64,000 bases of DNA from Escherichia phage OLB35: the sequence record MH992122.1, one strand, 5' to 3'. Positions 29,549 through 62,359 of the stretch are shown in pieces. Under the pieces are notes generated by a model, which had not been told where the DNA came from, did not search any database, and worked only from the letters and a program-made list of their open reading frames with translations. How positions within the stretch are numbered: the first letter of the stretch is position 1; every line of letters begins with the position of its first letter. The translations under genes were made by a program, and so were the position numbers.

Positions 29549-29628
29549 TTTTATTTCTCCTCTAGTTGACAGGTCTATAGTAACACAACTAGAGGAGAAG
29601 TAAACCACTTTTTGATAGGAATTAACTT

Positions 29629-29905
29629 TTAAACTGCTTTAGATACTTCGTCACGAACCTGGTGGAAGTTCTTGAGCTGTTCAAGGCGTTGTTCGTAATA
29701 CGCAATCTCATCTTCTTCAAGACAATCGTCAGCGTCTTCTTTCAGATATGCCTTGTACTCATTAAAGAGGGCCCATAGGCGGTTCTCAAAGTCATCAAGG
29801 CTTTGAATTTTCTTGTGCTTAGGAACAAGGCTAAAAGGATTGCTTTCAGTTATGCTTGTGACCTTTTCTTATGAGTTCCAAATACCCAGTAATAGTAGAA
29901 GCCAT
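29629..29905 (-). pseudogene. Frameshifted ORF ([14 protein letters not shown] then frame change)
   Basis: ATG at 29905 runs 19 codons to a TGA; an adjacent frame continues ...[15 protein letters not shown]...[28 protein letters not shown]; break at the T4 run 29864-29867. Confidence 0.5.
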
Positions 29906-31711: not shown

Positions 31712-32014
31712 TTATTTACCTTTAATTACTTTAGCTGCTTCGATAGCCGCTTGCTGAAGGTCATCCATAGACATACCGAATTTAGAAGCAAAGTTATCAA
31801 TTTTCTTTTCGACAGCATTCAAAGGCTTGGCCTGTTTACCTTCATTAGCGCCAGGAAGAGCGAGAATACGCTCTTTGTCAATATAAAGGCTTACAAGTTT
31901 CTTACGGTCTTTATCGGACAAATCATGAAATGAATGGGCCTTTTTATTTATAGCGGCTTCTAATTTACCTGCACTCACTCGCGCTTCAGTAATAAATTCT
32001 TGATATGTTTTCAT
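31712..32014 (-). CDS. ipII: Internal protein II-like (capsid-targeted)
   Basis: N-terminal capsid targeting sequence MKTYQEFITEA...; 100 aa; resembles T4 IPII as recalled. Confidence 0.8.
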   Translation of the reverse strand: MKTYQEFITEARVSAGKLEAAINKKAHSFHDLSDKDRKKLVSLYIDKERILALPGANEGKQAKPLNAVEKKIDNFASKFGMSMDDLQQAAIEAAKVIKGK

Positions 32015-32078
32015 TTTTTGTTTCCTTGTTTGTTTTGATAGAGTAATTATACCATATTAATACTTAAGCGTAAACAAT

Positions 32079-32339
32079 TTAAGCTTTACCGCCAGAAATA
32101 ATTCCGAAGTTGTTAAAATCGTATCCAATATCGTCAACATCTACTTTAGGATTTACTACAACATAAGCAATTTCACTACGTTTTGCATAGGTGTTGATTT
32201 CTTTACCATCGCCACCTAAGAAAGAATACCCATTACGTTTTAATGAGCCAAAGTCTTCGGCATCACCAATTTACTTCGATAGCAGCTTTCTGTTCCGCAG
32301 ATAATGTACTTCAGTGATAAACTCTTGATATGTTTTCAT
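32079..32339 (-). pseudogene. Internal-protein-like gene with in-frame TAA after codon 22
   Basis: ATG at 32339: MKTYQEFITEVHYLRNRKLLSK, TAA at 32271-32273, then the same frame stays open to 32079 (IGDAEDFGSLKRNGYSFLGGDGKEINTYAKRSEIAYVVVNPKVDVDDIGYDFNNFGIISGGKA). Confidence 0.5.
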
Positions 32340-32345
32340 TTTTCC

Positions 32346-32756
32346 TTAGTAAATTGATTTACCATAGTATTTGTACCAAGTCGGACGTTGAGCAATTTTT
32401 TCATCTAAGCGTGCTTGACTTATCGCAATGGACGCTTCGGACGGGACATAATTATTACGAAATTCGGCAGGGATGTCGGAAATATCCTGGACTGTCGTGT
32501 CCTTGATTTTGAAACCACGTTTCAAACATTCAGCGATTAGCTCGATTTGACGTAAACGTAAAAATTCGAGTTTGTCGTAAAAGAATGTTACGTGACCTGT
32601 GCCTAAGATAAATGTTGGAGAGATTTTAAAATCCTTTACACATTTACCATTTTGAACATGTTTACGGACTGCACCAAATACGCGTGGTAATTCACGATAC
32701 TCAGCCATAAGATGTTGGTCGGACAGTTCAGAAACAAGTGTTAAATTGATACGAGT
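32346..32756 (-). CDS. denV: Endonuclease V (pyrimidine-dimer DNA glycosylase) DenV
   Basis: [35 protein letters not shown]... near-identical to T4 DenV. Confidence 0.92.
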
Positions 32757-32817
32757 CATAATTTCCTCCAAGTAGTTGATGAATGTATAGTATCAAAACT
32801 CTTGGAGGAAGTAAACA

Positions 32818-34276: not shown

Positions 34277-34764
34277 CTCAAATTCCTGCATTCGGTAATA
34301 AAACGTTCAACTTCATTATTCTTGGCCTTTATCTTGTCTTTACGTTCCTGTAAACTACTTTTAACAAGATTAATAATGATGCCTATAGTACCTCCACCAA
34401 TAATACCACCAATAATACTTACGATAGTAGATGCTAATAAGATAGCGATAATATCTAATATAGCAAAGGCACTTACTTTAGTACTAAAAAACCACACCGA
34501 TGGTACAAATATAATCCATCCTGTTATCCATTGGCACTTATTGAAAAACTTTTCAAGCTCAGCTTGAGTTGTTCGTATTACTTCATCGATAGGTTGATAT
34601 CCATTAATGTATCTGTTCACGATAATACCTGCTGGTTTGTCGATTTTAAATGCTTGACATTGGTGTTTCACTAAATAAGATGGACATCCTGTCCAATCTA
34701 CTGAATAGTATGAAATACCTTCGTTGCCATCGTCTATATTAGACCAATATGTTTTGTTAATCAT
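34273..34764 (-). CDS. Membrane protein with glycine-zipper C-terminus
   Basis: 163 aa; two TM segments including IIGGIIGGGTIGIIINLV. Confidence 0.5.
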   Translation of the reverse strand: MINKTYWSNIDDGNEGISYYSVDWTGCPSYLVKHQCQAFKIDKPAGIIVNRYINGYQPIDEVIRTTQAELEKFFNKCQWITGWIIFVPSVWFFSTKVSAFAILDIIAILLASTIVSIIGGIIGGGTIGIIINLVKSSLQERKDKIKAKNNEVERFITECRNLR

Positions 34765-35450
34765 TACCAGCCTTCCATAGGGAATTCCAGATAAACTTGG
34801 GCATTGACACGAATTTCATTGGTGATCTTTTTAACTCGGTCTGTATTACGAGATACACGTCCGAACCAACGCCATCCATTACTAATTGCACGAGAACCAG
34901 TGTGCCATGTTTGCCAATCGAACTGAAGAAGAGTACGGTCTGGAGCTTCCCATTTCTCTAGTTCGCCTTTTTCAATTTTTTCGAGGACTTCTTTGTGCCA
35001 TTGGCGATAGATAAGTTCGCCATCAGGAATCTGACTGAACTCTGCAGTTCCTGTTGCAAAATGAGTAGGACACACGTCAGCGTTAACAAGACCAAGAATA
35101 TGTTCAGACAAATAGCGAGGATTGTCATAGTCAGGTTGTCCTGCAGTAATAAAATGTTGACCAACCGGAATATCCCGGCGCGGTACATCATCATGGTGAT
35201 AACCTGGAATAGCAGGATACCAACCAGGCATCAGCATATGAACCCGAGAATCAAATACAACATGTTGATTAGTCCAATCAATTGGGAGATTGACAATAAA
35301 GCTACGAGTAATAGGACCGCCGTTATCCTAAGCAAATTTTAAACTACAGTTAAAGAACATAGGCTCGTTCTTGATTTGATCATTAGAAATACCGCCGGCA
35401 AAACCACCTACTGCACGAGCTTGACTATTAAACACTTTAGAACTATTCAT
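34764..35450 (-). pseudogene. 229-codon reading frame interrupted by an in-frame amber codon
   Basis: ATG at 35450 (MNSSKVFNSQARAVGGFAGG...SLKFA), TAG at 35328-35330, same frame continues (DNGGPITRSFIVNLPIDW...) to 34764; the track sees only the C-terminal 157 aa. Confidence 0.5.
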
Positions 35451-37321: not shown

Positions 37322-37595
37322 TTAACAAGTGTGAGAAGATGCAACCCAACCACCATCTTCAAGGCTCAAGTTGTAGTCGTATTGGTAAACGTCGGCCCAT
37401 TCAGCATAACCGTTTTTTTGTACAACGTTCAAGATCGGCTTTAAGATGTCCTGGTGAATGATAGGTTCCACCCATGCCATAAGCTGGATACAAGTTGAAT
37501 GTTGTGTTTTGTTTATTAGCAATTTCTTTGGCAGCCTCAATAGCTGCATAGATTTTTGCTACAGCTTCAGCCAGTTCGGTTTGTTCTTTAGACAT
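37322..37595 (-). pseudogene. WVSSSxxC-tail family member 2, frameshifted
   Basis: N-terminal frame (37595-37401: MSKEQTELAEAVAKIYAAIEAAKE...YGMGGTYHSPG) and C-terminal frame (to 37322: ...NGYAEWADVYQYDYNLSLEDGGWVASSHTC) each match the intact paralogue. Confidence 0.5.
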
Positions 37596-40152: not shown

Positions 40153-40700
40153 TTTGTTTCTCCTCTGTAGTTGATAAGTCTTAACTATAGTATCACCATC
40201 ATTGGTGTTTGTACATCATTATTTTTAATTTTTCCAACTTAACAACCTTCAGCCAAGATACAACAGAGTTTTTATCTGAGGATTCAAATTCAGGCATTGG
40301 ACTTTCACCGCGAATAACTTCTTCGGTGTATTCATAATCAACGACATCAATACTAACTTTAGCCATTTTGTTTCTCCTCTGTAGTTGATAAGTCCTATAG
40401 TATCACCATCATTGGTGTTTGTACATCATTTATTTTTAATTTTTCCAACTTAACAACTTGTAGTGTCCTTCATTCATACGTGGTTTATCCCAAGAAATAC
40501 TAATATATGATTCGCCATCAATAGCTTTTTCTTCACCACCACCACTGATAGTCCTCTGTAGTTGATAAGTCCTATAGTATCACCATCATTGGTGTTTGTC
40601 AACTATTATTTTTAATTTTTCCAACTTAAAACTTGTAGTGTCCTTCATTCATACGTGGTTTATCCCAAGAAATACTAATATATGATTCGCCATCAATAGA
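40085..40700. repeat. Three tandem copies of a ~160-230-bp module (gene 3' end, promoter, leader, gene 5' start)
   Basis: Core ...ttttgtttctcctctgtagttgataagtc(c/t)ta...tagtatcaccatcattggtgtttgt... recurs at ~40153, ~40366 and ~40549 with flanking duplicated coding ends. Confidence 0.8.
40199..40366 (-). CDS. Chimeric 55-aa ORF created by the duplication
   Basis: MAKVSIDVVDYEYTEEVIRG...; first 19 aa identical to the start of 39925-40152, then diverges. Confidence 0.3.
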   Translation of the reverse strand: MAKVSIDVVDYEYTEEVIRGESPMPEFESSDKNSVVSWLKVVKLEKLKIMMYKHQ

Positions 40701-41042: not shown

Positions 41043-41507
41043 TTATTTGATTTGTTTAGCAGACCAAATGCGGTCTTTAATAAGTTTTTGGATATCTTCA
41101 ACATACTCAAGGCTATGAGCGTGAGGATTATCTTTGAAGCTATGTGCTCGTGCCAGTTTCTGGCCTTCAGTTTTGATTACCAAAAGTTCTTTAAGAATTG
41201 CTTCATACTTAGAAATAATTCCTTTGGCGATATTTTTTTCTTGAGCTGCTTTAGGGCCCGCTTTTGGTGCTGGTGCTTTACCTGTAGCTTTCTGGAACAA
41301 TTCACCTGATGCAGCTAGGCTTTTAAAAACTCGGCTAACAGTATTAGCATTAGTAAAACCTTCGGCTTTAAAATCTCTAATAAAACGGAAACGTTCTTCA
41401 TCAGAGGCGTCTTTGTAAGAATATTTACCTGCTTGAATTGCTGCAATCGCAGCGGCTTTTACATCTGAACTAGATTGTTCAGTCAAAAATTCTGCATATG
41501 ATTTCAT
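41043..41507 (-). CDS. Internal-protein-like (CTS-bearing) protein
   Basis: N-terminus MKSYAEFLTE resembles the capsid targeting sequence; 154 aa, Ala/Lys-rich. Confidence 0.5.
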   Translation of the reverse strand: MKSYAEFLTEQSSSDVKAAAIAAIQAGKYSYKDASDEERFRFIRDFKAEGFTNANTVSRVFKSLAASGELFQKATGKAPAPKAGPKAAQEKNIAKGIISKYEAILKELLVIKTEGQKLARAHSFKDNPHAHSLEYVEDIQKLIKDRIWSAKQIK

Positions 41508-44290: not shown

Positions 44291-44578
44291 TTACAGAAGA
44301 GTTTTTGCAATAATTTTAAGCTGAGCTACAGAAATGTGCTTAGCTTTAAACAGTGCAGTCTCTTCAGCCGGAGAGATAACAATAGTAGCGCCATCTTTCT
44401 TAGCAGACCATCCATCCCCTAAGTAAACAGTACCTTTTACTTCTTCGCCGTCAGCCAGACTAATCATTGGTTTGCCCTCACGTCCTTTATTTGCTTTAAT
44501 AACTTCGGAAGTAAGGGTTGCTTCAGTCAGAGTAGAAACGTTAGCATCAGGTGATATAAATTCTTTATAGGTTTTCAT
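44291..44578 (-). CDS. Internal protein I-like (capsid-targeted)
   Basis: Starts MKTYKEFIS...; 95 aa; sits between the tRNA region and 57B as T4 ipI does. Confidence 0.6.
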   Translation of the reverse strand: MKTYKEFISPDANVSTLTEATLTSEVIKANKGREGKPMISLADGEEVKGTVYLGDGWSAKKDGATIVISPAEETALFKAKHISVAQLKIIAKTLL

Positions 44579-48209: not shown

Positions 48210-48785
48210 TTGTTATTTACATTCTTCGACCCAATAGGATATAGTGCTAAAACAGTTGATAAGAATGCACCTACTATTCCTATGACAGACATATTTCGTA
48301 ACTATAAAGAGTACTTTAAACGTGTTGCTGCCAATTATAGATTACGTTCTTATTACATTAAAGGCTCTCCACGTCCTGAAGAACTAGCAAACATAATTTA
48401 TGGCAACCCTCAATTATACTGGGTCCTTTTGATGTGTAATGATAACTATGATCCGTATTATGGTTGGATTACATCTCAGGAAGCAGCGTATCAAGCGTCT
48501 ATTCAGAAATATGCAAATGCTGGCGGAGACCAAATTCTTTACCATATTAACGAGAACCGTGAGAAATTTTACAATTTAGTTTCATATCCAGACGAGCCTT
48601 TAGTATGGTATGATAAAGGTGATGAAGCTCGTAAGTATCCGCAATATAAAGGACCTTTGGCTGCAGTAGATACTTATGAAGCAGCTGTACTAGATAACGA
48701 AAAACTTCGTAAAATAAAAATTGTTGCAAAGGAAGATATAAACTCGTTTATCACTGATTTGATTCGTGAGATGGAGATTGCATAA
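48210..48785 (+). CDS. 53: Baseplate wedge protein gp53
   Basis: MLFTFFDPIGYSAKTVDKNAPTIPMTDIFRNYKEYFKR... matches T4 gp53. Confidence 0.9.
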   Translation: MLFTFFDPIGYSAKTVDKNAPTIPMTDIFRNYKEYFKRVAANYRLRSYYIKGSPRPEELANIIYGNPQLYWVLLMCNDNYDPYYGWITSQEAAYQASIQKYANAGGDQILYHINENREKFYNLVSYPDEPLVWYDKGDEARKYPQYKGPLAAVDTYEAAVLDNEKLRKIKIVAKEDINSFITDLIREMEIA

Positions 48786-50518
48786 TGGAAATGATTAGTA
48801 GTAGCCTTAATTGGTTCGTGGGTGTTGTCGAGGACAGAATGGACCCATTGAAACAAGGGCGTGTTCGAGTACGAGTCGTAGGACTTCATCCAGCGCAGAG
48901 AGCACAAGGTGACGTACAAGGTATTCCTACCGAAAAACTTCCATGGATGACTGTTATTCAACCTATTACATCGGCATCAATGTCGGGTATTGGTGGTTCT
49001 GTTACAGGCCCTGTCGAAGGAACTCGAGTATATGGTCATTTCTTAGACAAATGGAAAACAAACGGTATTGTACTCGGTACATATGGTGGAATTGTACGCG
49101 AAAAGCCTAATAGACTAGAAGGTTTTTCCGACCCTACAGGTCAATATCCACGACGTTTAGGTAATGATACGAACGTATTAAACCAAGGTGGTGAAGCTGG
49201 TTATTATTCGAATTCTAACGTAATTCAAGACAACAACTTGGATTATGGTATAAACCCAGATGATACAGATTTAGCAAATATTCCAGAAGATGATGACCCT
49301 AATTTTACAATAACAGAAATGTTACGTCGTGATGAAGGTCTTCGTGATAAAGTGTATTGGGACCATCTAGGGTATCCTACAGTAGGTATTGGACACCTTA
49401 TCGTAATGGAAAAGACCCGAGATATGTCTCGAATTAATAAATTATTATCTGATCAAGTAGGGCGTGAAGTAACAGGAAATCCCGGGACTATTACATTAGA
49501 AGAAGCAACAGCGTTATTTGAGAAAGACCTTGCTAAGATGCAGAAAGACATTCGTTCTAATTCTAAAGTAGGTCCTGTTTATGCTAAAATGAACAGGTCT
49601 CGTCAAATGGCATTAGAAAACATGTGCTTCCAAATGGGCGTTGGCGGTGTAGCAAAATTCAATACTATGCTTAAAGCAATGGCCACAGGTGATTGGAAAA
49701 CTGCATACAAATCTGGGCGTGATTCATTATGGTTCCAACAGACTAAAGGACGTGCTTCACGCGTAACAACAATTATTTTAACTGGTAACATGGAATCATA
49801 CGGTGTTCCTGTTAAAACACCACCTTCGCCTGGTGTTGGTGCCGATTTAGTTACTAGAAATACAGATCCAGAAGACCCGGCTGGTCCTCCTGTTCCATTA
49901 GATTCGCGTATCCTTTTTAAAGAACCTGAATCAAGTTATCGCGGTGAATACCCGTATGTTCATGCTATGGAAACAGAAAGCGGTCATATCCAAGAATTTG
50001 ATGACACTCCAGGTAACGAACGTTATCGCTTAGTTCATCCAACAGGGTCATATGAGGAAGTTTCTCCATCCGGGCGTCGTACTCGTAAAACTGTAGAAGA
50101 CCTTTTTGACATCACTAATGGTGATGGGAATTTCCTGGTTTCTGGTGATAAACTTGTTAACGTTGGTGCTAATGAAATATATTATAACATGGCAGACCGC
50201 CTCCATCAAATAGATGGCAGCGACACAATCTTTATTCGTGGTAACCAAACTAAAACTGTTGAAGGCGATGGAACTCTTTACGTTAAGGGCAATATCAAAA
50301 TAGTTGTTGACGGAAATGCAGATATTCTTGTTAAAGGTGATGCTAAGACTCAAGTTGAAGGGAATCATGACTATACTGTCAATGGTAATGTTAAATGGAC
50401 TGTCAATGGTAATGTTGATATGACTGTTGCTGGCAATTGGTCTGAGACAATGACTACAATGAGCTCAATAGCTTCAGGACAATATACTGTTGACGGATCT
50501 CGTATTGATATTGGGTAA
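48785..50518 (+). CDS. 5: Baseplate hub / tail lysozyme gp5
   Basis: 577 aa; N-terminal OB domain, central lysozyme domain (RDEGLRDKVYWDHLGYPTVGIGHL), C-terminal VxGxxxxxV beta-helix repeats. Confidence 0.92.
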   Translation: MEMISSSLNWFVGVVEDRMDPLKQGRVRVRVVGLHPAQRAQGDVQGIPTEKLPWMTVIQPITSASMSGIGGSVTGPVEGTRVYGHFLDKWKTNGIVLGTYGGIVREKPNRLEGFSDPTGQYPRRLGNDTNVLNQGGEAGYYSNSNVIQDNNLDYGINPDDTDLANIPEDDDPNFTITEMLRRDEGLRDKVYWDHLGYPTVGIGHLIVMEKTRDMSRINKLLSDQVGREVTGNPGTITLEEATALFEKDLAKMQKDIRSNSKVGPVYAKMNRSRQMALENMCFQMGVGGVAKFNTMLKAMATGDWKTAYKSGRDSLWFQQTKGRASRVTTIILTGNMESYGVPVKTPPSPGVGADLVTRNTDPEDPAGPPVPLDSRILFKEPESSYRGEYPYVHAMETESGHIQEFDDTPGNERYRLVHPTGSYEEVSPSGRRTRKTVEDLFDITNGDGNFLVSGDKLVNVGANEIYYNMADRLHQIDGSDTIFIRGNQTKTVEGDGTLYVKGNIKIVVDGNADILVKGDAKTQVEGNHDYTVNGNVKWTVNGNVDMTVAGNWSETMTTMSSIASGQYTVDGSRIDIG

Positions 50519-50521
50519 TAT

Positions 50522-51037
50522 ATGGCACAAATACTTCCTTTAAATACCGACTTAGGAGAAGACATGGAAGGGGCGTCTATTGACGTCCTTTTTACTCCTC
50601 AGCTAGAAACGTCCGAAACTTTAGTGTCAATAAATATAACAGATTATGAACCGACACAAGGCATTACGGTAGATGGTAATCGTTTATATGGAACATATGA
50701 AAGTGTGTTTAGCTTTTCTTCGGATGCATTGAAATATCGATTAAATGATGATTTTAAAACTGCATCTTCATGGGATGATTTACCGAAAGATGAATCCGCA
50801 CAGTTATATTTGTGGAGAGCTCCTCAGAATCTTCGTAAAGTGTTTAGTTATACGGTTGAAATGATTTATAACTACCAAGAAGAAAGTTCATCAGGCGGCA
50901 CAAGAAGTGACTCTGGTGCAGAACCTCCACCGGCTCCAGTACAAAAAACTCTTACTAAGGTTTATACAAAAACTATAGTAGGAAATTGGAGCAAATGGGC
51001 ACAACAATTACGAAACTATGTTTATATGAGGCCATAA
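50522..51037 (+). CDS. 5.1: gp5.1-like protein
   Basis: 171-aa ORF immediately after gene 5. Confidence 0.55.
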
Positions 51038-51039
51038 AA

Positions 51040-51333
51040 ATGTCTGGCTTAAGTTACGACCAGTGCGTTACAACAGGTCATGAAGCATGGCCTCCTACGG
51101 TAATTAACGCTTCTCAATCTAAAGTATTCACCGGTGGTATTCCTGTTCTTGTAGCAGGAGACCAAATAACACCTCATACAGAAATTAAAAAACCATACGA
51201 GACTCATGGAGGTGTTACTGAACCTCGTACATCTAAAGTATATGTCACCGGTAAAAAGGCCGTTCAAATGGCTGACCCAATTTCATGCGGGGACACTGTT
51301 TCTCAGGCCTCGTCAAAAGTCTTTATCAAATAG
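51040..51333 (+). CDS. 5.4: gp5.4 PAAR-like spike tip protein
   Basis: 97 aa from [19 protein letters not shown]...; PAAR-like [15 protein letters not shown] region; between 5.1 and 6. Confidence 0.75.
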
Positions 51334-51341
51334 GAATTAAA

Positions 51342-53312
51342 ATGGCAAACACTCCTGTAAATTATCAATTAACCCGAACAGCGAATGCTATTCCCGAGAT
51401 TTTTATCGGGGGCACATTTGCCGAAATCAAACAAAACATTATCGAATGGCTCAATGGACAGAACGAATTTCTTGATTATGATTTTGAAGGTTCGCGTTTA
51501 AACGTATTGTGCGACCTTTTAGCATATAATACTCTTTATATCCAACAGTTCAGTAATAGTGCGGTGTATGAAAGCTTTATGCGCACTGCAAACTTGCGTA
51601 GCTCTGTTGTACAAGCGGCTCAAGATAACGGATACCTGCCTTCATCTAAATCGGCAGCACAAACAGAAATTATGCTCACATGTACGGATGCATTAAATAG
51701 AAACTATATCACTATTCCACGTGGTACTCGTTTCCTGGCGTATGCTAAAGGTACTTCTGTAAATCCATATAACTTTGTTTCCACAGAAGACGTCATTGTA
51801 GTTAAAGACAAAAATAATCAATATTTCCCACGTCTTAGGTTAGCTCAGGGACGTATTGTTCGTACTGAATTAACATTTGATAAATTAAAACCTATCATTA
51901 TTCGTGATAAGAACATTGACCGTAATTTGGTTAAATTGTATGTTGACGGAGCAGAATGGATTAACTGGACTCGCAAATCGATGGTTCATGCTGGTTCTAC
52001 TTCAACCATTTATTATATGCGAGAAACTGTTGACGGGAACACTGAATTTTATTTTGGTGAAGGTGAAATCTCTATTAACACATCAGAAGGTGCTTTAACA
52101 TCTAACTACGTTGGCGGCCTTAAACCTGTCCAGGGTTCTAAAATCGTAATTGAATATATTTCTACTAATGGTGCTGAAGCAAATGGTGCAGTAGGATTCT
52201 CTTATGCTGATACATTAGCTAATATCACAGTTATTGGAATTAATGAAAACCCAAGTAATAACCCTGACTTCGTTGGTGCGGATGGCGGTGGCGACCCTGA
52301 AGATATTGAACGTATCCGTGAATTAGGTACAATTAAACGCGAAACTCAACAACGATGTGTGACTGCGACAGATTACGACACATTCGTCTCTGAACGATTT
52401 GGTTCTATTATTCAAGCGGTTCAGACATTTACGGATTCATCTAAGCCTGGGTACGCATTTATTGCTGCTAAACCTAAGTCTGGGTTATATTTGACTTCCG
52501 TCCAACGAGACGATATTAAAAATTATCTTAATGAGTATAACTTAGGGACGATAACTCCTGTTGTTATTTCTCCTGATTATTTGTTTATTAAAATGAATAT
52601 TCGCGTTACGTATGCATTGAACAAATTACAGGAATCTGAACAATGGTTAGAAGGCCAAATTATTAATAAAATCGACCGGTATTATATTGAAGACGTGGAA
52701 ATTTTTAACTCGTCATTCGCAAAATCTAAAATGCTAACGTATGTCGATGACGCAGATATTTCTATCATTGGTTCGTCTGCGACTATTCAAATGGTTCGCG
52801 AGGTACAGAACTTCTACAAAACACCTGAAACAGGTATTAAATACAATAACCAGATTAAAGATAGAACATTAGAATCTAACGTGTTTTCATTTGATAGTTT
52901 ACGCGTTGACCCTGAAACGGAAGATACTATTAAATATGACGTTCGCATTGTAGGTTCAGATAGAAATGACCGTGGCATTGGACAAGTTATTATTGGCCCG
53001 TTTGCAGATGGCGACGTTATAGAAAATGCTTATATTCAACCATATACTGGTGACGATTTTAATAAACTTCATGTTACGGACGGAAGAAACAAATATTACT
53101 CTATAGGTGAAGTAAATTATCCGGCTGATTCAATTTATTGGAATATAGCTAAAATTGATTTAACTTCCGATAGATTTGAAGTTCAAACTATTGAACTCTA
53201 TTCAGACCCAGCTGATGATGTTATCTTTACTAAAGACGGGTCATTAATTGTATTTGAAAATGACTTACGTCCACAATATTTAACCATAGATTTGGAGCCT
53301 ATTTCACAATGA
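51342..53312 (+). CDS. 6: Baseplate wedge protein gp6
   Basis: ~656 aa from MANTPVNYQ...; the track ORF starts 19 codons earlier; synteny 5-6-7. Confidence 0.88.
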   Translation: MANTPVNYQLTRTANAIPEIFIGGTFAEIKQNIIEWLNGQNEFLDYDFEGSRLNVLCDLLAYNTLYIQQFSNSAVYESFMRTANLRSSVVQAAQDNGYLPSSKSAAQTEIMLTCTDALNRNYITIPRGTRFLAYAKGTSVNPYNFVSTEDVIVVKDKNNQYFPRLRLAQGRIVRTELTFDKLKPIIIRDKNIDRNLVKLYVDGAEWINWTRKSMVHAGSTSTIYYMRETVDGNTEFYFGEGEISINTSEGALTSNYVGGLKPVQGSKIVIEYISTNGAEANGAVGFSYADTLANITVIGINENPSNNPDFVGADGGGDPEDIERIRELGTIKRETQQRCVTATDYDTFVSERFGSIIQAVQTFTDSSKPGYAFIAAKPKSGLYLTSVQRDDIKNYLNEYNLGTITPVVISPDYLFIKMNIRVTYALNKLQESEQWLEGQIINKIDRYYIEDVEIFNSSFAKSKMLTYVDDADISIIGSSATIQMVREVQNFYKTPETGIKYNNQIKDRTLESNVFSFDSLRVDPETEDTIKYDVRIVGSDRNDRGIGQVIIGPFADGDVIENAYIQPYTGDDFNKLHVTDGRNKYYSIGEVNYPADSIYWNIAKIDLTSDRFEVQTIELYSDPADDVIFTKDGSLIVFENDLRPQYLTIDLEPISQ

Positions 53313-56300
53313 CAGTAAAAGCGCCAGCAGTCACGAGTCTCAGATTATCTAAATTGTCCGCAAACCAAGTTCAAATTCGCTGGGATGAGGTTGGCGCTAA
53401 TTTCTACTATTTTGTGGAAATAGCTGAGACCAAAACAGCTAATGGGGAAGCAATTCCCCGTAATAGCTATAGATGGACTAATTTAGGATATACCGCTGAT
53501 AACAATTTCTTTGAGTCTGGTTTAAATTCATTAACAACATATATGATGCGTGTGGCTACAGCAGCGGAGGGATTTGAGCAGTCTGATTGGAGATACACCG
53601 AAGAGTTTGAAACATTTGAAATAAACGCTTACACATTCCAACATATGATTGAAATGCAATTAGCTAACGAGTTTATTTCTGAAAAATTTACAAAAAATAA
53701 TACAAACTACGTTGATTTTAATAATGACACTATCATGGCAGCACTGATGAGCGAGTCGTTCCAATTTAGTCCTGCATACACCGATGTGTCATCGATTAGA
53801 AATTTTATAATTGGTGAAAATCGGTATCATGAAATCCAGGGGCATATCCAGGACGTATGTAAAGATATAAATCGAGTATATCTAATGGAATCTGAAGGAA
53901 TTCTTTACCTTTTTGAAAGATTCCAACCTATTGTAAAAGTGTCTAATGATAAAGGCCAAACATGGAAAGCGGTTAAATTGCTTAATGACCGTGTAGGATA
54001 TCCACTTTCACGAACTGTATATTACCAATCAGAATATACGACGTATTTGCTCGGCTATGATAAGATTTTTTACGGGCGTAAATCATCCGATATTCGTTGG
54101 TCTGCTGATGATGTTCGTTTCAGTTCACAAGATGTAACATTTGCTAAAATCGGGGACCGATTAAATTTAGGTTTTGATGTAGAGATTTTCGGTACATACG
54201 CATCATTACCAGGAAACGTATCACGTATTGCAGAAGCTATTACTTGTAATGATGACTATGTTTATATTGCGGCCAGAGATAAAGTTCGCTTCGTTAAAAC
54301 CAGTAACGCTCCTATTGATTCAGATCCATTATCTCCGACCTATTCCGAACGGTTGTTTGAACCTGAGACGTTTACAATAACAGGCAACCCTAAAGCAGTT
54401 TGTTATAAAATGGATTCTGTTGGTGGAAGAATATTCGCTCTTATTATTGGTGAAGTCGAAAACGTTAATGACGACCCAAGAACAAAGCCTATTTTAGATT
54501 CCGTTGATAAAGGTGTATACGTTTTAGACCATGACGCTGGAAAATTTAAAAGGATATTTGGTAATACCGAAGAAGAACGCCGTCGTATAGAACCGGCTTT
54601 CACCAATATGTCTACTGATGGTGTTGAGCTTTATATCTCTTCTAGTAATTTTAAATTTTTAGAATCTGATATTGTTGACGACCCAGAAACGCAATCTAAG
54701 TATGGACTTTTAGGAGCAGTTAAGTATGAATATCCTAGAGAATGGCTCGCAGATAAACATTACCATATGATGATTTTCGCATCAAACGAAGAAAGTAATT
54801 GGGAAACTTTTTCACCAACTCCTATGCAGTATTATGCAGAACCTTTCTTTAGTTATTCTAGAAAATCAGGCACACGTTCTTGGATTAATAACTCTGATAG
54901 AGCGGTAGTGATTTATTCTGATTTGCTTTACACAAAGGTAGTGGAAAGCCACCCTAGCACTTCACCTGATCGTAAAGTTCATGAATACTGGAATGATGGC
55001 GATTGTAAGATTGTTATGCCGAATATAGAATTCACTGGATTTAAAAAATACGCATCTGGTATGTTGTTTTATAAATCATCAGGTGAAATAATTTCATATT
55101 ACGATTTTAGTTATCGTGTTAGAGATAACGTTTCTATAATTTGGAAGCCCACTAACGTATTTTTGACCTCCTCATTACAAAACCAAGAAAAAGAAACTTC
55201 TTGGGTTCCTGTTGAAGAGACTGGTCTAGCTGACCCGGATTTACGCCCATTACTCACTACAATGATGCCAGAGTCTTATCTGTTGGATAATACAAACTTT
55301 GAAGCATTTTGTGAAGCGTATATTCAATATCTTTCTGATGGATACGGGACTCATTATAATAACTTATTGAATTTGATTAAAAATAAATACCCACGAGAAG
55401 AACACGCATGGGAATATCTTTGGTCTGAAATTTATAAACGGAACATTTATTTGAATGCTGAGAAACGTGATTTAGTTTCTAGGTTCTTTGAGTCCAGAAG
55501 TTATGATTTTTATTCTACTAAAGGAACTGAAGCGTCGTATAAGTTTTTGTTTAAAGTTCTTTATAACGAAGACGTTGAAGTGGAAATTGAGTCATCTGCT
55601 GGAACAGAGTACGATATCATAATTCAATCTGATTCTATAAGTGAAGATTTGGTTGGACAAACTATATACACCGCTACAGGTAGATGTAATGTTACATATT
55701 TAGAAAGAAGCTATTCTAAAGGTAAATTACAATGGACTGTGACTATTCATAACCTTTTAGGTAGGCTTTTAGTCGGTCAAGAAGTAAAAGCCGAAAGACT
55801 AGCAGATTTTGAAGGTGAAATAGTTCGCGGTATTAAAGGTAAAGAACTTGCCCAAAACACTATCGATTATTTTAATCGTGGTAGAGCTTATTACGTCATG
55901 AAAATAAAGTCAAATCTTCCATCCTCTCGTTGGAAATCTGACGTACTACGTTTTGTACATCCGGTAGGATTTGGATTTATTGCAATAACCTTATTAACAA
56001 TGTTTATTAATACAGGATTAACGCTTAAACATGTTGAAACTATTATTAATAAATATAAAAATTATAAGTGGGATTCCGGACTGCCTACGGAATATGCAGA
56101 CCGCGTCGCTCGTTTAGACCCTCAAGGTAATGTAGAATTCAATCCTGTTACAGGTGAAGTAATTTATGATGCTGGTCCTTATGCCGGTATCGAATACCCT
56201 TTACCTGCAAATTATAACGAAGAAAATGATAACTCTATTTTCCAAGGACAATTACCGTCCGAACGACGCAAGCCAATGAGCCCATTATTTGATGCATCAG

Positions 56301-56407
56301 GTACAACGTTCTCTAGATTTAGAGAGCTTGTTAATGAAAGATTGTTAGATAACGTGGGAAATCCTAGAGACCCGATTAATCCACCACAGGTTAAATTAGA
56401 TGAATGA
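53309..56407 (+). CDS. 7: Baseplate wedge initiator gp7
   Basis: 1032 aa, same length as T4 gp7; overlapping stop/start with genes 6 and 8. Confidence 0.9.
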   Translation: MTVKAPAVTSLRLSKLSANQVQIRWDEVGANFYYFVEIAETKTANGEAIPRNSYRWTNLGYTADNNFFESGLNSLTTYMMRVATAAEGFEQSDWRYTEEFETFEINAYTFQHMIEMQLANEFISEKFTKNNTNYVDFNNDTIMAALMSESFQFSPAYTDVSSIRNFIIGENRYHEIQGHIQDVCKDINRVYLMESEGILYLFERFQPIVKVSNDKGQTWKAVKLLNDRVGYPLSRTVYYQSEYTTYLLGYDKIFYGRKSSDIRWSADDVRFSSQDVTFAKIGDRLNLGFDVEIFGTYASLPGNVSRIAEAITCNDDYVYIAARDKVRFVKTSNAPIDSDPLSPTYSERLFEPETFTITGNPKAVCYKMDSVGGRIFALIIGEVENVNDDPRTKPILDSVDKGVYVLDHDAGKFKRIFGNTEEERRRIEPAFTNMSTDGVELYISSSNFKFLESDIVDDPETQSKYGLLGAVKYEYPREWLADKHYHMMIFASNEESNWETFSPTPMQYYAEPFFSYSRKSGTRSWINNSDRAVVIYSDLLYTKVVESHPSTSPDRKVHEYWNDGDCKIVMPNIEFTGFKKYASGMLFYKSSGEIISYYDFSYRVRDNVSIIWKPTNVFLTSSLQNQEKETSWVPVEETGLADPDLRPLLTTMMPESYLLDNTNFEAFCEAYIQYLSDGYGTHYNNLLNLIKNKYPREEHAWEYLWSEIYKRNIYLNAEKRDLVSRFFESRSYDFYSTKGTEASYKFLFKVLYNEDVEVEIESSAGTEYDIIIQSDSISEDLVGQTIYTATGRCNVTYLERSYSKGKLQWTVTIHNLLGRLLVGQEVKAERLADFEGEIVRGIKGKELAQNTIDYFNRGRAYYVMKIKSNLPSSRWKSDVLRFVHPVGFGFIAITLLTMFINTGLTLKHVETIINKYKNYKWDSGLPTEYADRVARLDPQGNVEFNPVTGEVIYDAGPYAGIEYPLPANYNEENDNSIFQGQLPSERRKPMSPLFDASGTTFSRFRELVNERLLDNVGNPRDPINPPQVKLDE

Positions 56408-57404
56408 TTCAAGTGTTGTCTATCGTTCGATAGTTACTTCAAAATTTAGAACTGAAAAAATGTTGAATTTCTACAATTCAATAGGTGATGGTGATAATAA
56501 AAACACCATCTTTATAACGTTTGGTCGGTCTGAACCATGGGCTGCTAATGAAAATGAGGTGGGCTTCGCCCCACCGTATCCAACAGACTCGGTTTTAGGT
56601 GTAACAGATATGTGGACTAACATGATGGGTTTAGTTAAAGTTATCCCATCTATGTTAGACTCGGTTATTCCTAGACGTGACTGGGGAGATATTCGTTATC
56701 CGGACCCTTATACGTTCAAAATAAATGATATAGTCGTATGTAATACAGCCCCATATAACGCCACTGAAGTCGGAGCTGGATGGTTAGTATACCGTTGCGT
56801 AGATGTTCCTGATGTTGGGATGTGTTCTATTGAGTCTCTCGACAACAAAGAAGAATGTCTTAAATTAGGCGGTAAATGGACTCCATCTGTTAGGTCTTTA
56901 ACCCCTCCTGAAGGCCGTGGAGATGCTGAAGGGATTATCGAAGTTGGTGATGGATATATATGGGAGTATCTTTATGAGATTCCACCCGATGTGTCTATAA
57001 ACCGATGTACTAATGAATATATAGTCGTTCCATGGCCGGAAGAAGTTAAAGAAGATCCTGCTCGTTGGGGATATGAAAACAATCTAACCTGGCAACAAGA
57101 TGATTTTGACCTTGTGTATAGAGTTAAAGCAAACATAATTCGTTTTAAAGCCTATTTAGACTCAGTTTATTTCCCTAATGCAGCACTGCCTGGTAATAAA
57201 GGATTTAGACAAATTTCTATTATCACAAACCCCTTGGAAGCTAAACTCCGTCCTAATGACCCTAATATAAAAGCTGAAAAGGATTATTATGACCCCAGAG
57301 ATTTACAGCGTCATTCTGGTGAAATGATTTATATGGAAAACCGTCCACCTATTATTATGGCAATGGACCAAACCGAAGAGATCAATATTTTGTTTATGTT
57401 CTAA
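56400..57404 (+). CDS. 8: Baseplate wedge protein gp8
   Basis: 334 aa, same length as T4 gp8; synteny. Confidence 0.88.
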   Translation: MNDSSVVYRSIVTSKFRTEKMLNFYNSIGDGDNKNTIFITFGRSEPWAANENEVGFAPPYPTDSVLGVTDMWTNMMGLVKVIPSMLDSVIPRRDWGDIRYPDPYTFKINDIVVCNTAPYNATEVGAGWLVYRCVDVPDVGMCSIESLDNKEECLKLGGKWTPSVRSLTPPEGRGDAEGIIEVGDGYIWEYLYEIPPDVSINRCTNEYIVVPWPEEVKEDPARWGYENNLTWQQDDFDLVYRVKANIIRFKAYLDSVYFPNAALPGNKGFRQISIITNPLEAKLRPNDPNIKAEKDYYDPRDLQRHSGEMIYMENRPPIIMAMDQTEEINILFMF

Positions 57405-57433
57405 TTTAGGGAGACTTCGGTCTCCCTTTCGCG

Positions 57434-57441
57434 TATAAATA
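57434..57441 (+). promoter_or_regulatory. Late promoter (TATAAATA) for gene 9
   Basis: Exact TATAAATA ~25 nt upstream of the gene 9 ATG. Confidence 0.7.
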
Positions 57442-57466
57442 GTATAAACTATTAAGGATTAGCCAC

Positions 57467-58330
57467 ATGTATATTCAAACTCCAAAACAATTGATTGACG
57501 TTGGCGAAATTGGTAACGCTTCTACAGGCGATATCCTTTTTGACGGCGGTGTTAAAATAAACAATGATATAAATGCTATTTACAATGCGTTTGGTGACCA
57601 ACGAAAAATGGCAACTGCTAATGGGACAGGACCAAATGGACAAATAATCCATGCTACTGGATACTACCAAAAAGGAGGTCCTACTGATTATTTCACCCCT
57701 GTTCCAGTAGGAAGTAGACACGACATAGATGCTTCTACCGGTGGTGTTATTGTTACTGTTGCTAGAGGTGAACTCGGCGATTCCGTGGAATTTATAAATT
57801 CAAACGGGTCAATTTCGGTAAACAACCCATTAAGTATCCAAGCATTAGATTCTATTAAAGGTGTTGCAGGTAATTTAGTTATAACTACACCTTATACTAA
57901 AGTTACTCTTCGTTGTATTTCTTCTGGTGCAGGCGGTTCAATATGGGATTATTCTACAGAAAGTATGTTTAGTCATACCGAAATTCCTGTAGACGGGACA
58001 TGGAATATTATTTCAGACTATGTCAATATTCCTCTATTTTATAAAACTGAATATAATGCTGCTAAACTTTTGGTTACATGCCAATCTGCCAATGGCAGAA
58101 AAATTAAATCATGCGAAATAAATATTCTAATAGATACAATTAATTCAAGAGTTATTTCAACCGAATACGCAGTGATGCGCGTTGGTAATGATAACGAAGA
58201 AGATGAAATTGCGAATATTAGTTTTTCGATAATTAACAATTTTGCCACTATGACAGTTTCTTCACGTATAAATGGTCTTCGAGTGGCAGCTAAAGTTATT
58301 TCAACTCAGAAAATTAGGGTCGCTCAATAA
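57467..58330 (+). CDS. 9: Baseplate protein gp9 (long tail fibre socket)
   Basis: 287 aa; MYIQTPKQLIDVGEIGNASTGDILFDGG...; synteny. Confidence 0.88.
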   Translation: MYIQTPKQLIDVGEIGNASTGDILFDGGVKINNDINAIYNAFGDQRKMATANGTGPNGQIIHATGYYQKGGPTDYFTPVPVGSRHDIDASTGGVIVTVARGELGDSVEFINSNGSISVNNPLSIQALDSIKGVAGNLVITTPYTKVTLRCISSGAGGSIWDYSTESMFSHTEIPVDGTWNIISDYVNIPLFYKTEYNAAKLLVTCQSANGRKIKSCEINILIDTINSRVISTEYAVMRVGNDNEEDEIANISFSIINNFATMTVSSRINGLRVAAKVISTQKIRVAQ

Positions 58331-60144
58331 TGAAACAAAATATTAAAATTGGGAACGTCGTTGATGACGGACAAGGCGATTACCTTCGTCGTGGTGGTGC
58401 AAAAATTAATGAAAACTTTGATGAGTTGTATTATGAATTAGGCGATGGCGAAGTTCCATATTCCGCTGGTGCCTGGAAAACATACCATTCTTCAGATGGA
58501 CTTAATTTAGCTGCTGAATGGGGTAAATCATACGCAATTGATACTTCAACAGGGCGTGTTTCTATAAATTTACCTAAAGGAACAGTGGAAGATTATAATA
58601 AAGTAATTAGAGCCCGTGATGTATTCGCCACATGGAATATTAACCCTGTAACATTAATTGCTGCCAGTGGTGATACTATTAAAGGTTCTTCTAGCCCAGT
58701 AGAAATCAATGTGCAGTTTTCAGACTTAGAATTAGTTTACTGTTCTCCTGGACGCTGGGAATACGTTAAAAATAAACAAATAGACAAAATTACTAGTTCT
58801 GATATTAGTAGTGTAGCTCGTAAAGAATTTTTAGTCGAAGTTCAAGGTCAAACTGATTTTCTTGATGTATTTGGGTCTGTTTCTTATAATGTGAATAATA
58901 TCCGTGTAAAACATCGTGGTAACGAATTATACTACGGTGATGCGTTCAGTGACAATAGCGACTTTGGTTCTCCAGGAGCTAATCCTGGAGAAATCGTTGC
59001 ATTAGATGGTAAAAACATCCGTTTAAGACAACCATGTAATATTGGCGACACCGTACAAATTGAAACCTTTTTGGATGGGATTACACAATTACGCAGTTCT
59101 TATTCTCGCCGCCAAATACGTATTTTAGATTCAAAATTAACAACCCGTCCTTCCTTAGAAGGAAGTGTATATGTCGCTGATTTGTCAACTTTGAAATCTA
59201 TTCCTTTTTCCGCATTTGGAGTTAATCCTTCAGAACCGGTCAATACCAATTCTTTAGAAGTTCGTTTTAACGGTATTCTTCAAGAATTAGCTGGTACTGT
59301 TGGTTTACCTATGTTCAGATGTGAAGGAGCTGACGCAGAAACTTCTACTGAGTGTTCAGCTTTAGGTGGGACTTGGGTTACATCTAACACAGATTATTCT
59401 ATTGAATATGATGATAACGATGCAACTATCGCACGTGCTTTAGTCTTTGACCGTAAGTTTGAAGACCAAGACATTATTGATATTACATGGTTTAATAACG
59501 ATTTAGGCACTTTATTAAGTATCGATGACATTTTAGATACAACTGATGAAAGGTATGTCGCACAAGGTGCAACCGTAAATGTGACAGGCGATGTGGCTTT
59601 GACCGATTTCAATAATATCGGATGGCCTAATGTAGAACCTGTTCCGACATATAGCAGGGAATTCTCGTCTATTGCAAATATTTTTAACACTATTTACCCT
59701 GTCGGTACTATTTACGAAAATGCAGTGAACCCTAATAACCCAGCCACATATTTAGGATTTGGCTCTTGGAAATTATGGGGACAAGGAAAAGTATTAGTTG
59801 GATGGAACGACGATATTAGCGATCCTAATTTTGCATTAAATAATAACGACCTTGATTCTAGCGGGAATCCTACACATACCGCCGGTGGAACAGTCGGAAC
59901 AACGTCTAACACACTAACTAATTCTGATTTACCTCCTACTCAAACTGACGAGAAAGTTCTTATTTCCGATGAGAACGGTACAATTATTATTGGTGGTTGT
60001 CAATATGACCCTGATGCGGAAGGTCCTATATACACCAAATACCGTGAAGGCCACGCCACAACGAATAGTACACACGTACCGCCTCAAGCTGTAAATAATA
60101 TTCAACCGTCAATTACCGTATACCGTTGGGTAAGGATTGCATAA
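58330..60144 (+). CDS. 10: Baseplate wedge / short-tail-fibre attachment protein gp10
   Basis: 604 aa; synteny 9-10-11. Confidence 0.88.
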
Positions 60145-60803
60145 TGACCATACTTAATACTAAAGCGGGAGTAATATCCCGCGAAGCAGATTTTTTAGGA
60201 TTTAGAAAAAATCCTACTCAAATTGATATTTTAAACAACCAAGGCGTAGGTTCTGTAACTATTTCTCAATTGGCAAAAGGATTCTACGATGATAACGTGG
60301 AATCTGCAATAAACGATGTTCATAATATTGCTAGAGCAGATGTAGGAACAGTTACAATTAACACCTCAGGTGTATCTCCTGAAGGAACTTCACAGGTAGA
60401 TTATTGGTCCTTTAGTGGAAGTGTAACTGACCCTAGTTTGCCCGATGGAAGCCCTGTTATTGTAAAAGTTTACGGGCTTCCTGTTAACGCTACTGTAGGT
60501 ATGACAGCCGACGAATTTGTTGTACAATTACGTACTACTCTCCGGAATGCGATTTCCGACCAATTGGCTATTGCAGAGTATAAAGATGACCCTACTGTTG
60601 GGACTAAATTACAAATAACATATTTAGATAACCAAAGACACATACTCCCAACGTATTCCGCTTATGGTATCACGGTTTCTCAAGAAATAGTGTCTCAGGC
60701 TAAGTCCGGATACGGCACTTGGAATTTACTAGGTGCGCAAACCATTACTCTTGACAACCATACTTCACCTACAACCTTTTATTATTTTGTGAGAAGCGCA
60801 TGA
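60144..60803 (+). CDS. 11: Baseplate wedge protein gp11
   Basis: 219 aa from [20 protein letters not shown]...; ATG overlaps the gene 10 stop (TAATG). Confidence 0.88.
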
Positions 60804-62350
60804 GTAACAATACATATCAACACGTTTCGAATGAATCGGTATATGTTGAATTTGACCCTGCAGGGTCAAATTTTGATAGTTCAATAACCAATGTCCAGGC
60901 AGCCTTAGCCTCAATTAGCGCATATGGTGTTAAAGGTGTTCCGGACGCAAGCGAAGCAGAAAAAGGTGTAATTCAATTAGCGACAGAACAAGAAGTTCTT
61001 GATGGATTTAATAGTACTAAAGCCGTTACACCCGCCACATTAAATGCAAGACTTCAGTATCCGAACGCGTCAGAAACACAATACGGTGTAACTAAATATG
61101 CAACACAAGAGGAAGCCATTGCCGGCACTTTAGACACTGTTTCTATTACTCCACTTAAATTAAACCAAACTATTGATAACACGTTCTCTACTCGTTATTC
61201 CACCGAAACAACTAATGGTGTTATTAAAATTGCAACTCAAACCGCTGCACTTGCCGGGTCTGATGATACCACAGCAATGACACCGCTTAAAACTCAGCAA
61301 TTAGCAATAAAATTAATTTCTCAAATAGCTCCTAATAACGACCCGGCTTCAGAATCTATTACCGGTGTTGTGCGTTTAGCTACAGTGGCTCAAACACGTC
61401 AAGGAACTCTTCGCGAAGGATATGCAATTTCCCCGTATACCTTTATGAATTCTGTTGCAACACAAGAATATAAAGGTGTTATACGTCTAGGAACACAAGC
61501 AGAAATTAATAGTAATTTAGGAGATGTTGCTGTAACGGGTGAAACGCTAAATGGTAGAGGAGCTACCGGTTCTATGCGTGGAGTCGTAAAATTAACGTCA
61601 CAGGCCGGTGTTGCACCCGAAGGCGATAGCTCTGGAGCATTAGCATGGAACGCAGATGTAATTAATACACGCGGTGGGCAAACTATTAATGGTTCTTTAA
61701 ATTTAGACCATCTCACAGCAAATGGAATTTGGTCACGTGGCGGAATGTGGAAAAACGGTGACCAGCCGGTTGCAACAGAGCGATATGCATCTGAACGTGT
61801 TCCTGTTGGAACAATTCAAATGTTCGCAGGTGATAGCGCTCCTCCGGGTTGGGTTTTATGTTATGGCGGGACCATTTCTGGAGACCAATTTCCGGACTAT
61901 CGAAATGTGGTTGGAACGAGATTTGGCGGTGATTGGAATAATCCTGGAATTCCAGATATGCGCGGCCTTTTTGTTAGAGGAGCTGGTACAGGTAGCCATA
62001 TTTTAAATAATCGCGGACAAGACGGCTATGGAAAGGATAGATTAGGTGTAGGATGTGACGGCATGCATGTTGGCGGTGTCCAAGCGCAGCAAATGTCATA
62101 TCATAAACACGCTGGTGGATGGGGCGAATATCAACGTCACGAGGCACCATTCGGAGCATCCGTATATCAAGGTTATTTGGGTACTAGAAAATACTCTGAT
62201 TGGGATAATGCGTCGTATTTCACAAATGACGGCTTCGAATTAGGTGGTCACCGTGACGCAACAGGCACTCTTAACCGTGAAGGACTTATCGGATATGAGA
62301 CTCGTCCATGGAATATATCTTTAAATTATATTATTAAAGTCCATTACTAA
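60800..62350 (+). CDS. 12: Short tail fibre protein gp12
   Basis: 516 aa; N-terminal repeats (GV(I/V)(Q/K/R)LAT..) and C-terminal receptor-binding region with His-rich metal site (HKHAGGW). Confidence 0.9.
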
Positions 62351-62359
62351 GGGTAAAAA

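Follow-up and report, generated by a model that had tools for sequence, protein, structure and literature searches.

In phage T4, the internal proteins (IPs) Ip1, Ip2 and Ip3 act as inhibitors of type IV restriction enzymes of the GmrSD kind, each on a different one (PMC12373910), and the IP genes constitute a highly diverse cassette family in which the leader alone is conserved (PMC3012670). For capsid targeting in T4, a stretch of 10 N-terminal residues is enough; within this capsid targeting sequence (CTS), positions 4 and 7 matter most for targeting itself and positions 8 and 10 for processing. The protease gp21 cleaves after the Glu of L/I-X-E, and the cleaved propeptides and small fragments mostly exit the head (PMC9026906). 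The IP loci are recombination hotspots (PMC2839356, PMC3012670), and the plasticity of the two loci has been ascribed to promoter and stem-loop elements situated between the cassettes (PMC2839356). In the cassette-shuffling model of Repoila et al. 1994, as it is outlined in two articles (PMC2839356, PMC3012670), whole cassettes are exchanged via conserved promoter/stem-loop or leader sequences.

Here we analyse an interrupted IP gene in a 64,000-nt stretch of Escherichia phage OLB35 (record MH992122.1; hereafter the window), which genome comparison assigns to Mosigvirus, that is, to the RB69-like T4-type phages, the closest record being phage CCU7 (97.5% over 20 kb). As in T-even cassette shuffling, different IP cassettes have recombined in a hypervariable IP locus; unlike in that model, the right-hand end-point lies inside coding sequences, without homology, and the product appears dead. 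As with T4 Ip1, Ip2 and Ip3, the gene has a 10-residue CTS with an L/I-X-E site and lies in the locus around denV and e. Unlike them, the bodies of the two RB69-type genes of which it is composed (RB69ORF125c and RB69ORF123c, ORF125c and ORF123c for short) showed no detectable sequence similarity to the T4 proteins and belong to different PHROGs, and the copy present here is non-coding.

The locus between denV and ipII

On the minus strand of the window the gene order is nudE, e, an ORF127c-like IP gene, denV, the interrupted ORF, ipII and vs.8. The denV gene (endonuclease V; 32346-32771, minus strand), assigned from the ORF listing and from annotated homologues, adjoins the ORF upstream; the AAGGA Shine-Dalgarno sequence of the ORF (32347-32343) falls partly within the TAA stop of denV (32348-32346), both on the minus strand. 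Translation from the ATG at 32339-32337 (minus strand) opens with the CTS MKTYQEFITE, whose 10 codons, start included, occupy 32310-32339 and which keeps Y4, F7, I8 and E10 together with the prohead-protease site I-T-E. Codon 23 is TAA (32273-32271), after which the frame stays open for 63 sense codons (32270-32082) until a second TAA at 32081-32079. Downstream, at 31712-32014 (minus strand), lies an intact ipII orthologue of 100 aa (PHROG 7857), starting MKTYQEFITEA and 94% identical to T4 IpII across 86 aligned residues, which forms part of the LF82-1-like right-hand haplotype discussed below. A sequence-only reading of this DNA had described the CTS opening, the stop after 22 codons, the 63 further codons in the same frame down to 32079 and a leader common to the neighbouring ipII, and all four stand. 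Both the leader and the placement between denV and the ipII orthologue are those of a T4-type IP; behind the leader, where such a gene has an uninterrupted ORF, there is the TAA of codon 23.

An open run of 63 codons has a probability of 0.010 by chance, as calculated from the base composition, and 1.4% of the inter-stop runs in shuffled sequence are this long. More decisively, its 192 nt exactly match the intact genes of LF82-1 and CCU7. No in-frame ATG, GTG or TTG occurs 3' of the TAA of codon 23, so the 3' part is untranslatable here, and the ORF listing of the window holds no ORF of at least 20 aa ending at 32079. The spacer between the 3' part and ipII carries a promoter-like element (TTTACG, 17 nt and TATAAT with TG; 32046-32074, minus strand), called by consensus match only; the element is kept in relatives, and the spacer that holds it is identical in LF82-1.

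The relatives differ in the arrays that follow denV. In RB69 these are ORF125c, ORF124c and ORF123c, and in LF82-1 and CCU7 they are ORF125c and ipII, in both cases followed by vs.8. The ORF125c-type gene is the first cassette after denV in RB69, LF82-1, CCU7, PNJ-6 and DCP548; the ORF123c-type gene comes third in RB69, PNJ-6 and DCP548, and adjoins denV in ATK47 and in O157 typing phage 13. In the GenBank records of the last two phages the ORF123c-type IP gene is unannotated (ATK47, L004 1523-1852; O157 typing phage 13, L005 1524-1949), and the copy of O157 typing phage 13 includes a run of N. In the ATK47-type array, the cassettes ORF125c and ORF124c seem to have been cleanly deleted via the shared Shine-Dalgarno sequence and leader. 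The window has a second IP locus, near the tRNA genes, with two more ORFs that bear a leader, a 154-aa ORF (41043-41507, minus strand) starting MKSYAEFLTEQ... and a 95-aa ORF (44291-44578, minus strand) starting MKTYKEFISPD..., the latter having Pro-Asp at the expected Glu cleavage site.

ORF125c corresponds to PHROG 2667 ('internal head protein') and ORF123c to PHROG 3966, which has no assigned function. Pfam gave no match for ORF125c, ORF123c or the ORF127c-like IP, a PDB sequence search with RB69ORF125c returned chance-level matches only (E 0.35 or worse), and the AlphaFold2 model made from a 6-row alignment of the ORF125c family (mean pLDDT 45.5, pTM 0.35) was too poor for a fold search. 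We found no mention of RB69ORF123c, 124c, 125c or 127c in the literature searched. By analogy with the T4 IPs, the lost ORF125c protein may have had a function of their kind.

A chimera of two internal-protein cassettes

The ORF at 32079-32339 is a chimera of two IP cassettes, RB69ORF123c-type in its 5' part and RB69ORF125c-type in its 3' part. The 5' part consists of two blocks on the minus strand. The first one (32 nt, 32308-32339) exactly matches the start of the ORF123c-type gene of ATK47 and PNJ-6, and tblastn places ORF123c residues 1-11 there at 100% identity; the second one (34 nt, 32274-32307) is an exact match to all six ORF123c-type loci tested and encodes ORF123c residues 12-22, TLSAEQKAAIE, again at 100% by tblastn. 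Between 32308 and 32307 a T is absent, GTTACA having become GTACA (the site reads GAAGTACATT), and residues 1-11 and 12-22 therefore lie in two frames, with base 32307 common to both. One missing T thus puts codons 11-22 out of frame, and the second block, read from the ATG of the chimera, gives VHYLRNRKLLSK.

The 3' part (32079-32270, minus strand) is a remnant of an RB69ORF125c-type IP gene that comprises 63 codons plus stop and matches LF82-1 and CCU7 at 192/192 nt; the intact gene of these phages has 84-86 codons, and the 63-residue fragment matches the PHROG 2667 profile with E=1.6e-10. Between the two parts stand the three bases of codon 23 (TAA; 32271-32273, minus strand), which are traceable to neither parent, since at this position the ORF123c types have AAA or AAG and the ORF125c types TTC. 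The joint accordingly reads ...ATCGAAG / TAA / ATTGGTGATGCC. The 39 nt from the leader to ATTGG are unrelated to those of ORF125c genes, with which they agree in length, and represent ORF123c-type sequence (MKTYQEFITEVTLSAEQKAAIEE...). The segment proper to ORF125c, ADAKxPKFKVKAF, which runs from the leader to the conserved GDAEDFG motif, is absent, the ORF123c-derived sequence standing instead. ORF123c residues 23-109 were not found by tblastn in the 64-kb window, so no reciprocal product was located there; of the approximately 109 residues of a full-length member of PHROG 3966, the chimera has residues 1-22 only, spread over two frames.

Apart from the missing T and the three joint bases, the ORF contains no non-parental change. 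If the TAA alone is reverted, an 86-codon ORF results in which 12 residues are scrambled, being read out of frame; if the T alone is restored, the frame continues as ...AAIEVNW and meets a TGA after 25 codons. The sequence-only reading had regarded the ORF as either a decaying IP paralogue or a nonsense allele. What survives of this is that we are dealing with an inactivated IP-type gene with an intact leader; neither slow decay nor a simple nonsense mutation describes it. There is no sign of gradual decay, as each half, these changes aside, matches living genes perfectly, and the TAA sits exactly at the non-homologous joint of the two cassettes. A simple point-nonsense allele is ruled out: 34 of 252 nt differ from CCU7, all of them within the first 63 nt, ahead of the part coding for GDAEDFG, and the replaced stretch exactly matches another gene. 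The comparison with the same locus in RB69-like genomes that had been suggested thus identifies a positional orthologue of RB69ORF125c, except that its first 66 nt come from the ORF123c type.

Set against the two parental families, the chimera is like the RB69ORF125c genes in its position, in the Shine-Dalgarno context over the denV stop and in its total of 86 codons plus stop, and unlike them in that its codons 3-23 are foreign and end in TAA, so that no protein body is possible. With the RB69ORF123c genes it shares the first 66 nt, exact bar one missing T and including the MKTYQEFITE leader; unlike those genes, it stops short after residue 22 of 109, with residues 12-22 out of frame.

The allele is known from a single sequence. 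Among 50,697 phage genomes no record has this joint, the best full-length match being 91.7% identical. A search pattern that covers intact versions of the joint too, GCTGCTATCGAAG-N(0-12)-ATTGGTGATGC, has one occurrence in the window and none in IMG/VR, the JGI metagenomes or the GTDB genomes; likewise, the T-deleted 5' block is absent from IMG/VR, where the undeleted form is present. When the chimera was made intact (TAA to Lys) and searched against 5.8 billion protein clusters, only ordinary ORF125c proteins were returned, at 76% identity or less.

Origin of the joint and rival explanations

For the denV of the window, the SNP map counts 2 differences from ATK47, 6 from RB69, 8 from O157 typing phage 13, 9 from DCP548 and 11 from each of PNJ-6, LF82-1 and CCU7. 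On the right-hand side of the joint, the window matches LF82-1 without a single difference over 584 nt (32270 to 31687), a stretch that takes in ipII. These flanking polymorphisms point to a left parent that would be ATK47-like and a right parent that would be LF82-1-like. We consider it very probable that the ORF is a recent, recombination-generated null allele, a chimeric IP pseudogene in the denV-proximal locus of an RB69-like phage. In the origin that we propose as the simplest, two haplotypes would have crossed over, an ATK47-like one on the left, contributing denV directly followed by an ORF123c-type cassette, and an LF82-1/CCU7-like one on the right, with denV, an ORF125c-type cassette, ipII and vs.8; their junction would lie 66 nt inside the coding sequences, at a position without homology, and one T would have been lost at GTTACA as an additional lesion. 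We infer both an illegitimate crossover between genomes in a mixed infection and the order of the two lesions. Alternatively, a copy of the 5' end of the third cassette may have replaced that of the first inside a single array. In the spacer that precedes the ATG there are four A's, the number seen in the ORF125c-type genomes, whereas ATK47 has five; this slightly favours the copy within an array, or else the crossover model needs one extra change. As for microhomology at the joint, the placements AAAGT/AAA and AT were tried and gave no convincing single-step junction. The reading frame is preserved overall across the joint, which has a 1-in-3 chance, so a short-lived intact chimeric intermediate is possible.

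Such an intermediate is the starting point of a different account, according to which an intact 86-codon fusion, with the leader followed by 12 new residues (VHYLRNRKLLSK), one Lys codon and the body of ORF125c, was once functional and then suffered a single AAA-to-TAA substitution. ATK47 ORF123c does have AAA right after ...ATCGAAG, one substitution away from TAA, and with the T deletion the frame of the ATG becomes that of ORF125c, for the same total of 86 codons as in RB69ORF125c. We nevertheless regard both the account and the fusion so composed as unlikely: the frame match would arise by chance in one case out of three, the 12 residues come from reading out of frame and have CGG, AGA and CTA among their codons, all three rare in E. 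coli, the intact protein is missing from the 5.8 billion clusters, where the best match (76%) is of the ordinary ORF125c type, and three events (joint, T loss and substitution) are required, versus two for the recombination-generated null allele. Far less probable again is a functional short product, either the 22-residue leader peptide, which would leave a basic 12-mer after cleavage, or a product of readthrough or bypass of the TAA. The Shine-Dalgarno sequence, the ATG and the complete leader with its I-T-E site are kept, and the total frame is continuous across the TAA; however, conservation of the allele in other genomes, and with it any sign of selection, is lacking, the 12-mer is an accidental out-of-frame reading, and most propeptides and small fragments exit the head after cleavage (PMC9026906). 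Recoding is further disfavoured by the tRNA genes of the 64-kb window, which are Arg-TCT and Met-CAT only, neither of them a suppressor, and a programmed event such as readthrough, or bypass as in T4 gene 60, goes with a conserved arrangement, whereas the junction and the stop are confined to the window. The least credible proposal of all is that incomplete termination at the TAA would allow an 86-residue chimeric IP to be packaged, with a basic 12-residue segment before the ORF125c body, or that the 22-residue peptide would be packaged and injected. If either recoding or a packaged peptide were real, new injected cargo would arise by recombination inside IP genes and not by whole-cassette exchange.

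A sequencing or assembly artefact, in which the true genome has an intact IP gene and the interruption reflects base-calling errors or the mis-joining of co-cultured phages, is about as doubtful as the later nonsense mutation of a working fusion. Uniqueness of the allele to the OLB35 sequence speaks for it, as do the other frame-breaking 1-nt indels in the vicinity, including one that affects an A-run (about 37419), and the resemblance of the left and right flanks to two different known phages; some base-calling error, the missing T in particular, could be involved. However, the ORF is not restored by any single error, as described above, and most of the 60 indels between the window and CCU7 are compensated pairs in divergent patches or are intergenic. 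A strain-switch assembly chimera is unlikely, since the parents have no common sequence at the joint and therefore no shared k-mer at which an assembler could switch; the conserved leader and denV are where one would look for such a switch. Moreover, some 15 kb of essential baseplate ORFs in the window are uninterrupted. Nine long ORFs follow one another at 48785-63802 (577, 675, 1032, 334, 287, 604, 225, 516 and 480 aa; within this interval the 766 bp at 50519-51284 hold no ORF of at least 200 aa), and their lengths fit those of gp5, 6, 7, 8, 9, 10, 11, 12 and wac of T4. With these long essential genes intact, gross sequencing error and a high indel rate are unlikely, and disruptions confined to small accessory genes are expected from real decay.

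Several small accessory genes in the 20 kb around the ORF are disrupted relative to CCU7, which at first suggested poor sequence. A 228-aa gene at 34764-35450 (minus strand), homologous to XYS98122 of CCU7, has a TGG-to-TAG amber change at codon 41 (stop 35328-35330) and a divergent 13-nt patch (35385-35397), which leaves a 157-aa ORF from an internal ATG; no phage record matches its N-terminal allele at more than 90.5% identity. At about 37419 (minus strand), within a gene at about 37325-37595, an extra A in the A-run ACAAAAAAACG frameshifts a 90-aa gene relative to CCU7, for which slippage in nature and a base-calling error in the homopolymer are both possible causes. A 99-aa gene at 29608-29904 (minus strand), homologous to XYS98136 of CCU7, carries three single-nucleotide indels (net +1) close to its start, stops 8 codons early and appears disrupted. 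A 110-aa gene at about 40195-40630 (minus strand) has a 1-nt deletion near its 3' end, and its last 52-120 nt, together with the following spacer, are present in three copies (approximately 40582-40700, 40405-40524 and 40195-40246), which may represent a repeated regulatory cassette. The CCU7 genes at L010 2995-3558, 3799-4062 and 16689-16901 have no counterpart between 24000 and 44000 of the window, so that accessory content differs even from the closest relative.

Recurrent loss of ORF125c and IP-locus turnover

As regards the product of the null allele, translation from 32339, which probably takes place on the transcript of denV, would yield at most a 22-residue peptide, predicted to be MKTYQEFITE followed by VHYLRNRKLLSK, whose leader should still target the prohead core and be cleaved after Glu10. 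The 63-codon ORF125c body would not be made, and the phage would be without this cargo protein. Further downstream, ipII and the promoter-like element in front of it are unchanged.

Gain and loss had been expected at an IP locus, and the protein-cluster search bears this out with at least seven independently broken alleles of the ORF125c family. A frameshifted tail is seen in three of them (P0007, P0008 and P0009) and an in-frame internal deletion in two (P0006 and P0010); one is a leaderless copy from phage UFV13 (P0005) and one is a denV::ORF125c fusion (P0011), in which a deletion joins residues 1-30 of denV to the C-terminal 24 residues of ORF125c. P0010 is of the PhAPEC2/UGJNEcP2 type, with a 38-residue product that has a PHROG of its own (35655). 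In UGJNEcP2 (L006 1463-1573), PhAPEC2 (L007 1522-1638) and P0010 we observed a recurrent 144-nt in-frame deletion of ORF125c, apparently between two CCTAAA repeats, giving a leader-bearing mini-protein of 38 residues. P0011 comes from a 1657-nt contig of a Logan assembly and has another non-homologous end-point within ORF125c. That so many alleles have been damaged independently indicates that ORF125c is dispensable and often lost. The OLB35 allele resembles these other loss alleles (PhAPEC2/JS09/UGJNEcP2, P0007-P0009 and P0011) as an independent inactivation or shortening of a dispensable gene, and in them too the end-points often fall inside the ORF, via deletion or recombination. Unlike them, which are single-gene deletions or frameshifts or, in one case, a denV fusion, it is fused to a second IP cassette and has a stop that was created at the joint.

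Taken together, the allele is ordinary gene loss at a well-known recombination hotspot, and the annotation of 32079-32339 should be pseudogene or chimeric remnant, not internal head protein. On its own the chimera matters little; it is a cleanly resolved case of IP-locus turnover in a T4-like phage, in which cassettes recombine as whole units via the leader and also at non-homologous points within genes, so that a dead fusion may result. Together with the other broken ORF125c alleles, it indicates that a cargo gene of these phages is dispensable and repeatedly lost, which is the pattern expected of narrow-spectrum counter-defence genes such as those for Ip1, Ip2 and Ip3 of T4.
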